A DNA stretch of 64,000 nucleotides from Bacteroidales bacterium (GTDB taxonomy: Bacteria; Bacteroidota; Bacteroidia; Bacteroidales; G3-4614). Location of the stretch: assembly GCA_017521245.1 (NCBI GenBank), contig JAFXDI010000001.1, positions 227,178-291,177 on the forward strand, written 5' to 3'. Each line of letters starts with the position of its first letter. Position 1 is the stretch's first letter. The notes beneath the pieces are model-generated. The model ran no database searches, was not told the origin of the DNA, and saw only the letters and a list, made by a program, of their open reading frames with translations. Positions 1,303 through 59,582 of the stretch are shown in pieces. The translations under genes were made by a program, and so were the position numbers.

Positions 1303-4300
1303 CTATACCGCAATCCATTTCTTCGCATCATCTAAAGCAATACCTCTCTTTTTGCAATACTCTTCTCGTTGATTATCATCAATAGTTAAGGTAAAATATC
1401 TTGCATTAGGGTTAGCAATCATAAAACCACATACTGAGGCATTTGGGTACATGGCTCCGTTCTCGGTAACTTCAATACCCAACTTGTCAAAATCAACAAG
1501 ATTTTTCATCTCAAACATAAGTGATTGGTCGGGTAGGGAAGGGTAGCCTATTGCCGGTCTAATACCAATACAATTACCTTTAATAATATTTGCAACATTT
1601 TTCTCTTCTGTTACGTAGCCCCACAAATCAGTTCTTACAAGGTAGTGGGTATATGCAGTAGCTGCTTCTGCTAAACGGTCAGCAACAGATTGCAAAAGTA
1701 CCGATTTATAATCCTCTCCGCTGCTTTTCAAATGCTCTATATATGATTGAATATCTCTACCAACAGTAACAGCAAAAGTTGCAATATAGTCCTCTAAGCC
1801 ACTCTTCTTAGGTAGAATAAAATCAGAAAGAGCAAGATAGCCATCCTCGTTATTTTCCCTCTTCTTCTGTTGGCGTAGGGTTGGAATTATAACATCATTA
1901 TCACTTTTAATAATAATGTTATTATCTTTTGAGCTCGCATTGTAGAATGATACAGATGCTTTAATCTTTGGATTAAGTTTATCGCAAATCTCCTTTATAA
2001 TCCTTAAACAATCTTTATGTAGTTGCATAGCCTCTGAAGCCTCTTTTCTTTCCTCTTCAGCAAAAGATGTAAGCCACGATGCTTTGCAGTGGTCACATCC
2101 ATTAAGATATGCAATAGAAGCAAACTTGCCACTCAATTTCCAAACATTAAAAAGTTGTCCCCAATTAATATAATCAACAAGTTCGCTAATTTCAAAAGAT
2201 AAATCTATCTCTTTGTTCAGTACCTTAGGGGTAGTAGGAGTATAACCATTGCAACAACTCATATCTCTTAACCCTTCGGCAACAACCATAGGAACAGTCT
2301 CGTCACATTTAGTACACTCTCTCAAAAGATGTTGTCGCTCTTTAATCTCTTTAATATAACTCTCTCTAACCTTCTCATTAGTCAGTTTGGCTGCAATAAT
2401 TGGGTCTTGCGAGGCATCCTTAACATACACTACCGCACCACTATAAAGAGGTGCAATTTTAACAGCAGTATGCAACTCCGAGGTTGTTGCACCACCAATT
2501 AACAAAGGAATATCCAACCCTCGTTTTTCAAGTTCACGAGCAATACTGCACATCTCGTTGAGCGATGGAGTAATAAGTCCGCTAACGCCTATAATATCAG
2601 CACCAACTTCAACCGCTTTATCAATAATAGTTTCGGCTGCAACCATAACACCAAGGTCAATAACCTCATAATTGTTGCACCCTAAAACAACCGAAACAAT
2701 ATTCTTTCCAATATCGTGAACATCGCCCTTAACTGTAGCCAAAACAATTTTACCGGCACTCTTTTGTGAAGAACTATTTTCGTTCTTAATATAAGGTTGA
2801 AGAATCTCAACGGCACACTTCATAGTTCTGGCACTCTTAACTACTTGAGGTAAAAACATCTTACCTTCACCAAACAGAGAGCCAACCCTATTCATTCCAT
2901 CCATAAGAGGACCTTCAATAATAGCAACTGCCGAGCCATATTGTGTTAAAGCCTCATTAATATCACTCTCCAAGTTGTCGCTATTCCCTTTAACAAGAGC
3001 ATTGCTTAACCTCTCTGCAATGGTAAAATTTTCTTCTGGTATTATCTGTGTCGCATTACTTTCCACCTTAACCTCTTTAACACTCTCAGCAATCTCAATC
3101 AAACACTCTGTTGCATCATCCTTTCGGTTAAGAATAACATCCTCAACAGCCTCTAAAATCTTCTCGGGAATATCATTATAGTTTACGTTCGTTGTAGGGT
3201 TAAGAATTGCCATATCCATACCTGCATTAATAGCATGGTATAAGAATACAGAGTGCATAACCTCTCTGATGTAGTTATTTCCTCTGAACGAGAACGAAAG
3301 GTTACTTACACCTCCGCTAACCTTTGCGTGAGGAAGGTTTGTCTTTATCCAACGAGTAGCCTCAATAAAGTCTTTAGCGTAATTTTTATGTTCATCAATA
3401 CCTGTTGCAACAGCCAAAATATTGGGGTCAAAAATAATATCTTCAGCCTTAAAGTTGCACTCAGTTGTCAATATATCGTACGCTCTTTTACAAACAACAA
3501 TTTTTCGGTTAAAAGTGTCAGCTTGTCCCTCTTCGTCAAAAGCCATAACCACAACCGCAGCCCCCATATCTCTAATGCGTTTAGCCCTCTCTTTGAATAT
3601 CTCTTCACCCTCTTTAAGACTTATAGAGTTTACAATAGCTTTACCCTGTACATTTTTCAATCCTGCCTCAATAACTTCCCAATCCGAAGAGTCAATCATA
3701 AAAGGAACTCTGCAAATTTCAGGCTCTGCGGCAAGAAGTCTGAGAAAGGTAATCACCTCCTCTTTAGCATTTAACATGCCATCATCCATATTGATGTCAA
3801 TAATTTGAGCACCATCGTTAACCTGTTTAAGAGCAATTGATAGAGCCTCGCTGTAACTCTTCTCATTAATCAACCTCAAAAACTTTCTTGAACCAGCAAC
3901 ATTACATCTCTCGCCAACATTAACAAAGTTATTCTCCTTGCATACAGTCAAAGGCTCAAGTCCGGCCAAAACAAGTTTACACTCCTTCTCGGGGAGAGTG
4001 TGAGGCTTACCATTTTTAGCAATTTCAGCAATAAGTTTAATATGCTCAGGAGTAGTTCCACAACAACCACCAATAATATTTACAAGTTGCTCCTCAATAT
4101 ATGGCTTAATATCATTTGCCATTAATAGGGGAGTTTGGTCATACTCTCCAAATCTGTTAGGTAAACCAGCATTAGGATGAACCGATATCGCAAAAGGAGC
4201 AATCTCCGATAATCTGCGTAAAAAAGGTAAAATATCCTTAGCTCCAAAAGAACAGTTAATTCCAACTGTTGTAATAGGAGCATGAGATATTGACGCAACA

Positions 4301-4980
4301 AAAGCTTCAAGTGTCTGCCCGGAGAGAGTACGACCTGTGTTGTCGGCAATAGTAACCGATATCATCAATGGAAGTTCAATACCTTTCTTCTTAAACAGAT
4401 ACTCCACAGCATCAATCGCACACTTTAAGTTAAGAGTGTCAAAGACAGTCTCTAAAAGAATAATATCAACACCCTCATCAATAAGCACCTCAATCTGCTC
4501 GCAATATGCATTATAGAGTTCATCGTATGTAATTGCTCTTGCGGCAGGGTTATTAACATAGGGGGAGATAGAACAACTCTTATTGGTAGGTCCAACACTA
4601 CCTGCAACAAAGCGAGGTTTATCGGTAGTAGAGAACTCTTTTACGGCCTCTTTAGCAACTCTTACAGCACATCTGTTAATTTCCTTTACATAACTTTCTA
4701 AACCATAATCACTCATCGAAACCGATGTAGCATTAAAACTATTAGTCTCAATAATATCAGCACCAGCCTCAAGGTACGCTTTATGAATATTCTTGATTAT
4801 GTTAGGTTGGGTGAGAACTAAAATATCGTTATTTCCTTTTAATTCATTTTGATAATCCTTAAATAAATCCCCTCTAAAATCATTCTCGCTCAAATTTAAC
4901 TTCTGAATTTCAGTACCCATAGCACCATCCAGAATAAGAATACGACTATTTAGAAGTTCTCTCAGGTTGTATATTGACAT
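1303..4980 (-). CDS. metH: Cobalamin-dependent methionine synthase
   Basis: At 1225 aa it contains Hcy-binding, pterin-binding and B12-binding (GDVHDIGKNIV) domains plus the AdoMet reactivation domain. Confidence 0.95.
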   Translation of the reverse strand: MSIYNLRELLNSRILILDGAMGTEIQKLNLSENDFRGDLFKDYQNELKGNNDILVLTQPNIIKNIHKAYLEAGADIIETNSFNATSVSMSDYGLESYVKEINRCAVRVAKEAVKEFSTTDKPRFVAGSVGPTNKSCSISPYVNNPAARAITYDELYNAYCEQIEVLIDEGVDIILLETVFDTLNLKCAIDAVEYLFKKKGIELPLMISVTIADNTGRTLSGQTLEAFVASISHAPITTVGINCSFGAKDILPFLRRLSEIAPFAISVHPNAGLPNRFGEYDQTPLLMANDIKPYIEEQLVNIIGGCCGTTPEHIKLIAEIAKNGKPHTLPEKECKLVLAGLEPLTVCKENNFVNVGERCNVAGSRKFLRLINEKSYSEALSIALKQVNDGAQIIDINMDDGMLNAKEEVITFLRLLAAEPEICRVPFMIDSSDWEVIEAGLKNVQGKAIVNSISLKEGEEIFKERAKRIRDMGAAVVVMAFDEEGQADTFNRKIVVCKRAYDILTTECNFKAEDIIFDPNILAVATGIDEHKNYAKDFIEATRWIKTNLPHAKVSGGVSNLSFSFRGNNYIREVMHSVFLYHAINAGMDMAILNPTTNVNYNDIPEKILEAVEDVILNRKDDATECLIEIAESVKEVKVESNATQIIPEENFTIAERLSNALVKGNSDNLESDINEALTQYGSAVAIIEGPLMDGMNRVGSLFGEGKMFLPQVVKSARTMKCAVEILQPYIKNENSSSQKSAGKIVLATVKGDVHDIGKNIVSVVLGCNNYEVIDLGVMVAAETIIDKAVEVGADIIGVSGLITPSLNEMCSIARELEKRGLDIPLLIGGATTSELHTAVKIAPLYSGAVVYVKDASQDPIIAAKLTNEKVRESYIKEIKERQHLLRECTKCDETVPMVVAEGLRDMSCCNGYTPTTPKVLNKEIDLSFEISELVDYINWGQLFNVWKLSGKFASIAYLNGCDHCKASWLTSFAEEERKEASEAMQLHKDCLRIIKEICDKLNPKIKASVSFYNASSKDNNIIIKSDNDVIIPTLRQQKKRENNEDGYLALSDFILPKKSGLEDYIATFAVTVGRDIQSYIEHLKSSGEDYKSVLLQSVADRLAEAATAYTHYLVRTDLWGYVTEEKNVANIIKGNCIGIRPAIGYPSLPDQSLMFEMKNLVDFDKLGIEVTENGAMYPNASVCGFMIANPNARYFTLTIDDNQREEYCKKRGIALDDAKKWIAV

Positions 4981-4992
4981 AAAAATAAAATA

Positions 4993-5556
4993 CTATTTAA
5001 TAATTTTATTGGGGTTTTTAGAAATAAACTCTTTCCAACTCTTGCATCCCTTTCCTGTAATTGGCGATTTCATTTGATAAAAGTGGCATAATGCAGCCGC
5101 AACAGCATCCGTAGCGTCAAGTTGGGGAGCCATCTTCTCATCGGGTATATGTAAAATACGTTTAAGCATATCAGCCACTTGCTCTTTTGAAGCAGCACCA
5201 TTGCCGGTAACAGCCATTTTAATTTTAAGGGGAGCATACTCTGTAATAGGTAATTCGTGATGAATAGCGGCAGCCATAGCAACACCTTGAGCTCTACCAA
5301 GTTTTAGCATCGATTGCACATTCTTTCCAAAAAAAGGAGCCTCAATAGCCAACTCTTTAGGAGAGTATTGAGTAATTAAACTTGAAACACGTTCATATAT
5401 TCTGTTGAGTCTAACATAATGACTCTCAAACTTATTAAGTTTAAGAGTGCCCATCACCACTAACGATGGTTCTTTACCATTACACTCTATAATACCATAG
5501 CCCATAACGTTAGTACCGGGGTCAATGCCTAATATTTTAATATTTGTATCTGCCAT
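4993..5556 (-). CDS. ruvC: Crossover junction endodeoxyribonuclease RuvC
   Basis: The N-terminal [16 protein letters not shown] motif and the ~187 aa length match RuvC. The gene sits 12 nt upstream of metH, so they are probably co-transcribed. Confidence 0.92.
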
Positions 5557-5573
5557 TCTTTACTATTAAAGTA

Positions 5574-5581
5574 CAAATATA
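5574..5581 (-). promoter_or_regulatory. Candidate -7 promoter box TATATTTG for ruvC-metH
   Basis: The reverse complement of caaatata matches the Bacteroidetes TAnnTTTG consensus. It lies 18 nt upstream of the ruvC ATG. Confidence 0.45.
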
Positions 5582-5588
5582 CGATTAA

Positions 5589-5905
5589 GCGAGCGAAATA
5601 ATATCAAGTTTACTTGAATATTTCACAGCGAGTGGAAGTATATTGGAGGTTTACCTCAAATATAGAATAAAAAAGCGAGCGAAATAATATCAAGTTTACT
5701 TGAATATTTCACAGCGAGCGAAAGTATATTGGAGGTTTACCTCAAATATAGAATAAAAAAGCGAGCGAAATAATATCAAGTTTACTTGAATATTTCACAG
5801 CGAGTGGAAGTATATTGGAGGTTTCCCTCAAATATACAATAAATAAACGAGCGAGAAATAAGAAGTTAACTTCAATATTTTTACGCCGAGAGCGAATGAT
5901 TTTTG
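5589..5905. repeat. Tandem repeat with an 86-bp unit: three near-identical copies (5589-5674, 5675-5760, 5761-5847) plus a degenerate fourth copy
   Basis: Direct reading shows copies 1 and 2 differ at 2 positions. Each unit holds two imperfect hairpins with the same TTTAC loop (gaaataatatcaag-tttac-ttgaatatttc and tatattggagg-tttac-ctcaaatata). Confidence 0.9.
5657..5836 (-). promoter_or_regulatory. Three reiterated -7-like boxes TATATTTG (5657-5664, 5743-5750, 5829-5836), one per repeat unit, all pointing toward ruvC
   Basis: The reverse complement of caaatata in each unit is the same octamer as the proximal ruvC box. The -33 partners are weak. Confidence 0.3.
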
Positions 5906-6164
5906 ACTATATCATAAATAAAACAAAGAAAAATCAAACAAAATGTGAAATTCTATATCTAAAATAGTGCTAATACAAAAAAATATATATAATATTGTAT
6001 CTGTAACCAAAAAGAGGGAATATATAGAAGTTTAACCGATAATACAGATTTATATCGTTATCGTTTTGTTAATTATATTTAGAGATAATCTTTTATTTTT
6101 TTTGATAAATATTATACTCTAAAGCAACCTATCCCTTAATATTTTGAAATAACAAAGTACTGAG

Positions 6165-6194
6165 TCCATTAATTGTGCTCAATTAATGGATTTT
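6165..6194 (+). terminator. Orphan plus-strand terminator-like hairpin
   Basis: The sequence tccattaatt-gtgctc-aattaatgga forms a 10-bp stem followed by ttttgtaatgtttttt. No plus-strand gene lies upstream. Confidence 0.4.
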
Positions 6195-6216
6195 GTAATG
6201 TTTTTTCATGATTTTG

Positions 6217-6251
6217 ATGTGGTGTGTCCGTGAGGTTGCACCACATTTTTT
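6217..6251 (+). terminator. Orphan plus-strand intrinsic terminator-like hairpin
   Basis: The sequence atgtggtg-(14 nt loop)-caccacat is followed by a T run. No plus-strand gene lies upstream. Confidence 0.45.
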
Positions 6252-6324
6252 ATGAGAAAGTTATGGAGTTATTGAATATATATTGTAGGGAAGTGTAATG
6301 CTATTTATAATTTTATCTGAAACA

Positions 6325-6358
6325 TAAAAAAGTTCCAAAATCTTTCGACTTTGGAACT
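6325..6358 (-). terminator. Intrinsic terminator of gdhA
   Basis: The minus-strand RNA reads AGUUCCAAA...UUUGGAACU followed by UUUUUUAUGUUU, about 27 nt after the gdhA stop. Confidence 0.7.
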
Positions 6359-6384
6359 TAAATATTGAGTATTGTCTATATTAA

Positions 6385-7719
6385 TTACAAAACACCTTGA
6401 GCCATCATTGCTTTAGCAACTTTCATGAATCCAGCAACGTTTGCACCCTTAACATAGTTGATGTATCCATCCTCTTGTTTTCCGTAAAGAGTACATTGAG
6501 AGTGAATATCTTTCATAATTGATTGAAGTTTAGCGTCAACTTCTTCTCTGCTCCAACTTAGTTTAATTGAGTTTTGAGTCATCTCCAAACCACTAACAGA
6601 AACACCTCCGGCATTAGCCGCTTTACCAGGAGCATAAAGAATCTTGGCATTCAAGAACTCCGCAATAGCGTCGGGAGTTGAAGGCATATTTGCACCCTCT
6701 GATACAGCAAAACATCCGTTTGCAAGAAGTGCGCGAGCATCATCTCCGTCAATCTCATTTTGAGTTGCACTTGGCATTGCAATATCGCATTTCTCATTCC
6801 AAGGACGAGCGCCTTCAACATATTTGCAACCATATTTCTCAGCATACTCTCTAATGCGTCCGCGTTGAACATTTTTTAGGTTGAATATGAAAGCAAGTTT
6901 CTCTTCATCAATACCATCTGGGTCGTAAATATAGCCATTACTATCTGACATTGTAATAACCTTAGCACCAAGGCTGATAAGTTTCTTAACTGTATATTGA
7001 GCAACATTACCCGATCCTGATACAGCAACTACTTTATCTTTAATGTCAATGCCTTTGGTTTTTAGCATCTCAAGCAAGAAATATACGTTACCATAACCTG
7101 TTGCTTCAGGGCGAACCAATGATCCACCAAACTCAATACCTTTACCTGTGAAAGTACCAGTGTTTTCAAGAGCCATTTTTTTGTACATTCCATACATGTA
7201 ACCAACTTCACGACCACCAACACCAATATCACCAGCAGGAACGTCAGTTTGAGGTCCTATATGACGCCACAACTCAGTAACGAATGCTTGGCAGAAACGC
7301 ATAACCTCCATATCAGATTTACCACGGGGGCTGAAGTCTGAACCTCCTTTACCACCACCCATAGGTAGAGTAGTAAGCGAGTTTTTGAAAGTTTGCTCAA
7401 AAGCAAGGAATTTCAAAATAGAAAGGTTTACAGAAGAGTGGAAACGGATACCACCTTTGTAGGGACCAATAGCGTTATTGTGTTGGATACGATAACCCAT
7501 GTTAGTTTGAACTTGACCTTTGTCATCAACCCAAGTAACTCTAAAAGTGAAAACTCTGTCAGGAATACAAAGTCTTTCAATCAAATTATATTTATCAAAC
7601 TCAGGGTGTTTGTTGTACTCCTCTTCAATTGTCATTAAAACCTCTTCAACTGCTTGATGATATTCAGGCTCGTTGGGAAAGCGTCTTTTCAAATCGCTTA
7701 AAACTTTTTTAACTTCCAT
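6385..7719 (-). CDS. gdhA: NAD(P)-specific glutamate dehydrogenase
   Basis: At 444 aa it carries the GDH signature LPMGGGKGGSDF and a dinucleotide fold (VSGSGNVAQY). Confidence 0.95.
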   Translation of the reverse strand: MEVKKVLSDLKRRFPNEPEYHQAVEEVLMTIEEEYNKHPEFDKYNLIERLCIPDRVFTFRVTWVDDKGQVQTNMGYRIQHNNAIGPYKGGIRFHSSVNLSILKFLAFEQTFKNSLTTLPMGGGKGGSDFSPRGKSDMEVMRFCQAFVTELWRHIGPQTDVPAGDIGVGGREVGYMYGMYKKMALENTGTFTGKGIEFGGSLVRPEATGYGNVYFLLEMLKTKGIDIKDKVVAVSGSGNVAQYTVKKLISLGAKVITMSDSNGYIYDPDGIDEEKLAFIFNLKNVQRGRIREYAEKYGCKYVEGARPWNEKCDIAMPSATQNEIDGDDARALLANGCFAVSEGANMPSTPDAIAEFLNAKILYAPGKAANAGGVSVSGLEMTQNSIKLSWSREEVDAKLQSIMKDIHSQCTLYGKQEDGYINYVKGANVAGFMKVAKAMMAQGVL

Positions 7720-43703: not shown

Positions 43704-43752
43704 AGTGCAAACCGAGAGCGGAACTAAACTTGTTTAAGTTATGCCGAGGTGT
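43704..43752 (-). repeat. Dispersed structured element, copy 1 (in the putative prfA 5' leader)
   Basis: Its reverse complement aligns with 59462-59508. The shared sequence is CTCGGCATAAC..AAACAAGTTT.GTTC.GCTCT. Confidence 0.7.
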
Positions 43753-43781
43753 AGCCTATTTTCGCGGTAGTTTATCTACCG

Positions 43782-59405: not shown

Positions 59406-59433
59406 CAATCAGTTATCAGCAATCAGCTGTCAG
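59406..59433 (+). repeat. Heptamer repeat (NNATCAG) x4 starting immediately after the WYL gene stop codon
   Basis: The sequence caatcag ttatcag caatcag ctgtcag was read directly. Confidence 0.8.
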
Positions 59434-59461
59434 TTAACAAACATTCGTTTGTTGAATCTGC

Positions 59462-59508
59462 TCACGCTCGGCATAACACAAACAAGTTTGGTTCTGCTCT
59501 TGCTTACT
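59462..59508 (+). repeat. Dispersed structured element, copy 2
   Basis: It aligns with the reverse complement of 43704-43752. The hairpin is preserved by a paired T:A to C:G change. Confidence 0.7.
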
Positions 59509-59582
59509 CGTAGATTTGTCAGTTAGGTTTATTGGACTAATTAGTCTAATTTGACTAATACAAAGTGAAGCCGTAATTCCTC

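Follow-up and report, generated by a model that had tools for sequence, protein, structure and literature searches.

The window, i.e., the whole 64,000-nt stretch of DNA that was analyzed, corresponds to positions 227178 to 291177 of contig C18 in a genome of 2.09 Mb (54 contigs, 36.6% G+C), for which the closest named records are Candidatus Caccoplasma MAGs with a RuvC identity of 89 to 91%. On the minus strand of the window, ruvC (positions 4993 to 5556, 187 amino acids; PF02075, 1.6e-42) is followed after 12 nt by metH (1303 to 4980, 1,225 amino acids, confirmed by Pfam), and the glutamate dehydrogenase gene gdhA (6385 to 7719) lies on the same strand, separated from ruvC by an 828-nt gap. 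This gap harbors a tandem repeat array at 5582 to 5906, directly 5' of ruvC-metH, with ruvC as the first gene downstream. A terminator-like hairpin on the plus strand (6162 to 6193), located outside the repeat, is conserved genus-wide; in three distant congeners (G004, G007, and G011), its counterpart lies after a gene for tRNA-Ala(GGC) not present in the gdhA-ruvC gap of the present genome, and the hairpin is probably a leftover of this tRNA gene, which the three congeners have retained.

The array consists of three full units of the 86-bp type and one partial unit, all on the minus strand. Measured from box to box, the units occupy 5582 to 5664 (U1, 83 nt), 5665 to 5750 (U2, 86 nt), and 5751 to 5836 (U3, 86 nt), and the distal partial unit (5837 to 5906) contains only hairpin 1 and two CTCGCT boxes. 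Tandem Repeats Finder reported a period of 86 with 3.4 copies, 93% matches, and a score of 504 at 5587 to 5880; a repeat search of the window array found three in-register copies with identities of 100, 98, and 96%, and a 36-nt core of the unit occurred three times, compared to 0.00 expected. The sequence TATATTTG, a −7 box of the form TAnnTTTG, is present at four sites: the proximal box (5574 to 5581) stands on the sense strand 17 nt before the ruvC ATG (5556), the internal box of U1 (5657 to 5664) forms the 5' arm of hairpin 2, and identical internal boxes are found at 5743 to 5750 and 5829 to 5836. Read on the ruvC strand, hairpin 2 (TATATTTGAGG-TAAA-CCTCCAATATAC; 5638 to 5664, with copies at 5724 to 5750 and 5810 to 5837) has the word CACTCGC (5628 to 5634) just 3' of it, and the AU-rich hairpin 1 with its bulged T (5595 to 5624, with copies at 5681 to 5710 and 5767 to 5796) has CGCTCGC (GCGAGCG on the other strand; 5589 to 5595) in the equivalent place; both words recur with 86-nt periodicity. 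A variant palindrome (approximately 5853 to 5882) takes the place of hairpin 1 in the partial unit.

These data bear out the preliminary description of the locus as an 86-bp tandem array 5' of ruvC-metH, in which copies 1 and 2 differ at two positions and each unit carries a minus-strand −7 box directed toward ruvC. The degenerate fourth copy mentioned there is present at 5848 to 5906 (nhmmer model positions 1 to 57) and retains hairpin 1 and both GCGAG boxes, but it is a partial unit without hairpin 2. What had been taken for a truncated proximal remnant at ruvC is instead the normal 3' end common to every family member, so the proximal box is where the element canonically ends, and we infer that it serves as the ruvC promoter. 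When the array unit was folded, as had been proposed, both hairpins formed on the ruvC strand, with a folding energy of −20.9 kcal/mol and a z score of −4.7. In an independent metagenome assembly (L158), the whole 828-nt gdhA-ruvC gap is identical, array included, and three other assemblies break inside the array, as is usual for short reads at tandem repeats; all copy numbers given here are taken from MAGs, all of which are short-read assemblies.

A dispersed family of covarying two-hairpin units

Comparison of the unit with the rest of the genome and with relatives, a step suggested in the preliminary description for BLASTN, revealed a dispersed family of varying copy number. By BLAST, iterated nhmmer, and a covariance model, the main family comprises about 31 to 34 units at 20 loci in the present genome, with 34 matches to the covariance model R1. 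Most family loci hold a single unit, and arrays of two to three units are found elsewhere at C10:21252, C14:41165, C24:66658, C18:195893, and C23:149. Units are 91 to 97% identical within the window, C10, and C24 arrays versus 69% between loci, which points to local duplication.

Written on the strand of the neighboring gene, i.e., the reverse complement of the orientation used at first, the unit runs from a TAnnTTTG box in the 5' arm of hairpin 2 through CTTTCnCTCGCTG, hairpin 1, TTTCTCGCTCG, and about 8 nt to the next TAnnTTTG. The first part of the consensus reads nnTATnTTTG-NNN-TAAA-NNN-CGAAnATAC / TTTCaCTCGCTGTgAAA, and the remainder AATATTcAAG-yAAr-CTTgATATT / TCTCGCTCG-yTTAtTCG / TATnTTTG. 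The most conserved words of the family are the CTCGCT boxes, of which each unit has two, separated by about four helical turns. A TTTAC loop common to both hairpins had been reported and is found at the ruvC locus, but loops vary elsewhere in the family.

Both hairpins are maintained by compensatory change. Across the family, 88.4% of stem cells are paired, compared to 76.5% in column shuffles, and 75 stem cells show double changes versus 28 expected, a number reached by 0 of 500 shuffles; in controls with a slid register, stem pairing was just 38 to 57%. The covariation of both hairpins was also examined with RNAalifold. The proposal that structure is kept while sequence changes, made initially for the ruvC array, thus holds family-wide. 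The sole systematic non-Watson-Crick stem position is in hairpin 2, opposite the third T of TTTG (box position 7), where 17 of 26 copies have G and only 2 of about 25 to 26 have the A that would make the arm fully complementary. With such an arm, a second, reverse-facing TAnnTTTG would arise; the scarcity of A suggests that this is avoided, and avoidance fits a box that is read as a promoter.

Gene context and gains at resident −7 boxes

Eighteen of the 20 loci could be assessed, the remaining two running into contig ends. At all 18, a co-oriented gene begins 26 to 142 nt past the last CGCTCG, an outcome with a chance of about 4e-6 under random orientation, and nearly every locus terminates in ...CGCTCG-N8-TAnnTTTG, a few copies being one base off. 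The downstream genes encode or are SUI1, nusB, an aminotransferase, rnhB, miaB, ybeY, DUF2851, a HAD protein, an OmpA-like protein, ruvA, ruvC, a porin, dxs, tgt, rnpA, CotH, DUF6769, and a 75-aa ORF, and no one pathway accounts for them.

Bacteroidota promoters have a −33 TTTG about 19 to 21 nt upstream of the −7 box, and in some copies only, the 3' arm of hairpin 1 supplies TTG or TTTG 21 to 23 nt upstream of the box, a loose −33 match. Genome-wide, sense-strand TAnnTTTG is enriched 20 to 60 nt upstream of starts, evident at 20 to 29 nt by 110 sense versus 22 antisense occurrences (approximately 5-fold). TAnnTTTG near −7 defines the sigma-A promoter motif of Bacteroidota, and in Bacteroides thetaiotaomicron the −7 motif precedes 81% of primary start sites (PMC7366714). 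By its position and strand, TAnnTTTG appears to be an operative promoter signal in the present genome, matching B. thetaiotaomicron, and we infer promoter activity for the boxes of the family as well. We considered whether the conserved word preceding the box is a general promoter trait and rejected this, since CGCTYG-N6-10-TAnnTTTG occurs only 15 times against 3,776 TAnnTTTG. Separately, two contigs (C17:1-150 and C23:1-150) have in common the stretch that runs from an element copy to the contig end on its downstream side, at least 130 nt in length; it holds no ORF, found no match in an Rfam search, and upon comparison is not the 16S leader, so that an rRNA promoter was dismissed here. The shared sequence looks like a multi-copy feature driven by the box of the element.

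Comparison of filled and empty sites among congeners shows where the element is gained. At nusB, the insertion in the present genome measures 85 nt and comes with a duplication of 13 nt (TTAGTATCTTTGC) centered on the box: the site reads ...aaaaaaTTAGTATCTTTGC[72 nt]TTAGTATCTTTGCacaac..., and the empty site of G003, the closest species, reads ...aaaaaaTTAGTATCTTTGCacaac..., with one base differing between the flanks over the stretch shared in the alignment. As the site is also empty in G008, G001, G009, G006, and G010, the comparison argues for an 85-nt gain in the lineage of the present genome. The HAD gene site (C15) is filled in the present genome, G003, and G008, and contiguous, hence empty, in G001, G005, and G009. 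Conversely, the site at C50:9200 is empty in the present genome, G006, and G010 (common AATGTT-TATCTTTG-TAAAAATT), and in G001 too; there, G008 has two units precisely at the resident TATCTTTG, and G003 has two units, a 6.6-kb island, and then three units. At C18:125345, G003 has one unit and the present genome a single box-like heptamer, and radA and three more sites follow a like presence/absence pattern with greater divergence. The duplication measures 8 to 14 nt across loci (13 at nusB, 14 at C50:15995, 8 at C4). Exact excision between duplicated boxes could mimic a gain at single sites, but the empty outgroups speak against it. These clean filled/empty pairs show that gains land on existing −7 boxes and duplicate the box.

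Genus distribution, sister repeats, and candidate drivers

The scan with model R1 found 13 to 37 units in 9 of 11 congeners and 0 to 3 in G004, G007, and G011, and zero family units in 19 genomes from 19 other Bacteroidales families. About half of the loci filled in other species are empty in the present genome, and the converse is also true. The family unit found no match in annotated phage and plasmid collections, and the earlier check for resemblance to a known mobile-element end likewise gave none in Rfam and these collections. One IMG/VR contig (L173, IMGVR_UViG_3300021306_000156) has at 7339 to 7414 a half-element composed of a hairpin, CGCTCGCTTAATCG, and TATCTTTG; this viral contig is unrelated, of higher GC, and otherwise without similarity to the present genome.

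Upstream of ruvC, copy number varies across the genus. The present genome (RuvC 100%) has three units plus a partial; G003 and G008 (94 to 95%) have two units plus a partial; G005, G009, and G002 (89 to 91%) have just TTTCGCTTGTTTCTTGTATTTTTG, a remnant; G001, G006, and G010 (86 to 91%) have a plain box; and G004, G007, and G011 (75 to 77%) have a divergent tRNA-Ala and a plain box. Variation of the array among congeners, a possibility raised in the preliminary description, was therefore found, at zero, a remnant, two, or three units. Since the array is absent or variable upstream of congener ruvC, ruvC has no need of it. Recent amplification had also been suggested from the near identity of the copies; this series and the within-array identity of 91 to 97% agree with it, and the ruvC array is a recent expansion.

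Repeat similarity links 213 of 934 intergenic segments of the present genome. A sister family of about 60 loci and about 87 nt likewise has the order hairpin-box-hairpin-box and shares the GTAAAC loop with the main family; its consensus is GTTAACAAACATTCGTTTGTTGAA-TTTGCTCACGCTCGGC-AAAGTTTAAGTAAACTTAACTTT-GCTCTCGCTTACTCGCAGATTTGT. It lacks the TA of the box, leaving no TAnnTTTG, and sits 0 to 70 nt past stop codons, mostly in sense orientation, with TAGTTGT on both flanks; examples in the window are at 43710 to 43760 (C18:270887) and 59433 to 59519 (C18:286610). That the box-bearing subfamily is found only before genes and the boxless one after genes supports the importance of the box. A third small repeat, TTAGTTGTCAACTTCGCTGCCCCTACGGGGTAGTTGT (39 matches), forms a GC-rich hairpin with TAGTTGT words on either side and is frequently next to the sister family. 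On C27, 330 to 500 nt upstream of the 16S start, a related repeat consisting of a hairpin and CTCGCTTAC is present in two tandem copies, and the likely rRNA promoter box, TAATTTTG, is directly followed by CACTCGCTTTCGGGG.

We then considered what might move the element, which itself appears to behave like a mobile element. Its unit ends are direct repeats (box...box), its inverted repeats are the internal hairpins, and MITE-type terminal inverted repeats are lacking; the 8- to 14-nt range of duplications does not suit a classical transposase, and no longer, autonomous copy was found in the present genome. A Y1 transposase (PF01797) is encoded in only 2 of 12 genomes (G000, the present one, and G009), leaving 8 of 10 element-bearing genomes without one. 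The single Y1 (IS200/RAYT-like) gene of the present genome (C18:4541-4882, within C18:4300-5400, outside the window) has three copies of another, approximately 100-nt repeat (TTGTCTGAAAGACAATGTTGAGCAAAGCGAAACTACG...) around it, the classic REPIN-RAYT layout. A RAYT/Y1 driver was rejected on both grounds, i.e., its presence in 2 of 12 genomes and its different flanking repeat. The 6.6-kb G003 island (L174, G003:C5:262300-269450), located between array units with TATCTTTGC flanks and missing from the present genome, combines a DpnII restriction-modification system, made up of the endonuclease and two DNA methylases, with the gene for a tyrosine integrase that has Arm-DNA-bind_5, SAM_5, and catalytic domains. 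IntDOT-type integrases (at least 400 amino acids) are likewise not found in the present genome and occur in the element-free congeners G004 and G011; for want of co-occurrence, an IntDOT-like integrase was set aside as the driver and is kept only as a lead, a recombinase that reads the box being an attractive one. At dxs (C24:66532-66930), a two-unit array lies between a direct duplication of an approximately 85-nt leader (GAGCATCTTATAAAATGATTTCGG...). A larger tandem duplication therefore spans units plus flank, and the inclusion of leader sequence suggests slippage or template switching mediated by the box.

Rival readings and relation to known repeats

The reading we favor, at a probability of roughly 0.7, is that the array arose by local tandem amplification of a genus-specific, promoter-associated, mobile non-coding repeat of about 85 nt. 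The element would enter at an existing sigma-A −7 box and leave a duplicated box at both ends, such that the downstream gene keeps a −7 box at the usual distance, now with the element in front of it. Units would then multiply or vanish locally by slippage or unequal recombination between repeated boxes and units, and this explains why there are three units here, two in G003 and G008 as the nearest species, and a remnant or nothing in more distant ones. The proximal box at 5574 to 5581 would serve as the working promoter for ruvC-metH, and the three internal boxes, in a like context, may add tandem starts that give rise to hairpin-bearing leaders. Among the initial proposals, that of reiterated promoters for ruvC-metH comes closest, as the −7 box is recreated at each junction; the restriction to ruvC did not stand, since the unit is dispersed, gained, and lost at promoter boxes, and the array is therefore not a ruvC-specific device.

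A regulon could also place the same repeat before many genes: one regulator would bind the CTCGCT boxes or hairpins at DNA-repair and RNA-processing genes, with the array multiplying its sites. The strong conservation and helical spacing of these boxes agree with this, as does a lean of the downstream genes toward nucleic-acid housekeeping (ruvA, ruvC, rnhB, rnpA, ybeY, miaB, tgt, nusB, and SUI1, with radA in congeners). The porin, OmpA-like protein, DXS, aminotransferase, CotH, and HAD genes do not share this lean, however; about half of the occupied loci differ between species in both directions, the nusB copy is missing in the closest species despite near-identical flanks, and the sister family, whose boxes are the same, is found past stop codons. 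We consider a shared operator unlikely, and it is compatible with a mobile origin. The unit might instead act in RNA: transcription from the upstream box would place it in the 5' UTR, with an effect on stability, on processing, or on antitermination of the nut type by way of a hairpin and the boxA-like CGCUC. In favor of this, hairpin 2 has a U·G pair at its odd position on the gene strand in 17 of 26 copies, where the opposite strand would have a C·A mismatch; folding is slightly more stable on the gene strand (−20.9 versus −19.1 kcal/mol); the main and sister families are mostly sense to the adjacent gene; and the 16S gene is preceded by related repeats. Yet retention of TTTG without a reverse-facing box forces U·G at this position in any case. 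Once this single inherited column was set aside, G·U versus A·C counts of about 11 versus 8 left neither strand clearly favored, and the strand test was discarded as indecisive. Moreover, the distal box of a single unit lacks upstream context, a transcript from it would not include the 5' arm of hairpin 2, and Rfam is unmatched; a leader function as the explanation is rather improbable.

The preliminary description had also raised tandem small-RNA genes of about 70 to 80 nt, each with a promoter and terminator, and in line with this, every unit has an AU-rich hairpin after its −7 box and, in the ruvC array only, GCUCGCUUUUUU. This U-run is unique to the ruvC locus, other loci having CGTTTATTCG, and a consensus scan found no terminator-like site in the array. 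At permissive thresholds, Rfam returned only noise over 4900 to 6500 (best 21.2 bits versus a threshold of 50, E = 4.3), all 18 assessable loci adjoin a gene start, and most loci hold a single unit; this proposal is highly improbable and was abandoned. A bolder extension of the favored reading takes the main and sister families together as a genus-specific mobile system of gene punctuation, built on a protein-less promoter-homing element. The approximately 72-nt core bears an "anti-box", CGAAnnTAC, in the 3' arm of hairpin 2, complementary to the −7 box; this complementarity, or a box-reading recombinase, would direct insertion into TAnnTTTG with duplication of the box. Promoters would thereby be multiplied before genes, and the TAGTTGT-flanked sister would be placed just past stop codons. 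As a whole, this extension is tentative and less probable than not.

Small dispersed repeats that carry promoters are already known. Correia elements (CREE/NEMIS) of Neisseria are small, non-coding, and dispersed near gene starts; they create or carry promoters, form hairpins, have 26-bp terminal inverted repeats with a TA duplication, and occur in hundreds of copies in either orientation. They share with the present element the small dispersed hairpin repeat at gene starts, but they are not known to target the promoter box. BOX elements of Streptococcus pneumoniae (boxA-boxB(n)-boxC) are intergenic, with a multiplied inner module and stable hairpins, and can alter the expression of neighbors; like the present element, they are modular, tandemly multiplied, and hairpin-forming, but they are not known to carry a promoter box of their own or to have target specificity. 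The BrickBuilt MITE of Porphyromonas gingivalis, with a 23-nt repeat between leader and tail, small inverted-repeat ends, and bidirectional transcription, resembles the present element in its Bacteroidales host, narrow taxon, about 19 to 20 loci that are always intergenic, spacerless head-to-tail internal repeats, and promoter elements (PMC4596501). Unlike BrickBuilt, the unit here is 85 nt with two covarying hairpins, lacks terminal inverted repeats, keeps one fixed orientation to the gene, and ends in duplicated −7 boxes. REP/BIME and REPIN-RAYT sequences are likewise short extragenic palindromes, dispersed and clustered, and lineage-specific, but REPs have a conserved GTAG-type head and depend on the RAYT that they flank (PMC8049555); here, the Y1 gene of the present genome is flanked by a different repeat, and no cognate RAYT is found. 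Putative mobile promoters, i.e., highly similar regions upstream of unrelated genes in one genome, were defined by similarity alone (PMC3575422), whereas the present comparison resolves the structure and target of the element, the duplication, and the direction of gain. In the att sites of IntDOT (CTnDOT), the crossover adjoins a conserved word that ends in TTTGC, with imperfect inverted repeats around it (PMC2034462, PMC2817482), and target and element here also share the box word, with TTTGC in about one-third of copies; in contrast, the hairpin 2 arms are spaced by about 12 nt compared to the 7-bp overlap, and many copies have TTTGA or TTTGT, so that the resemblance is a lead and confers no class membership.

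Among the small dispersed repeats that bear promoters, the element has not been described before, and its well-documented insertion at −7 boxes is unusual. The spread of promoters within genomes has mostly been inferred from similarity; here, there are clean filled and empty sites, a resolved direction of change, and the promoter box itself as the target, which would explain why every copy faces a gene. For genome annotation, the main family marks promoters and the sister family marks gene ends, and for assembly, arrays of the element break short-read contigs. The family provides a concrete system for regulatory rewiring by non-coding DNA in an abundant uncultured genus of gut Bacteroidales.
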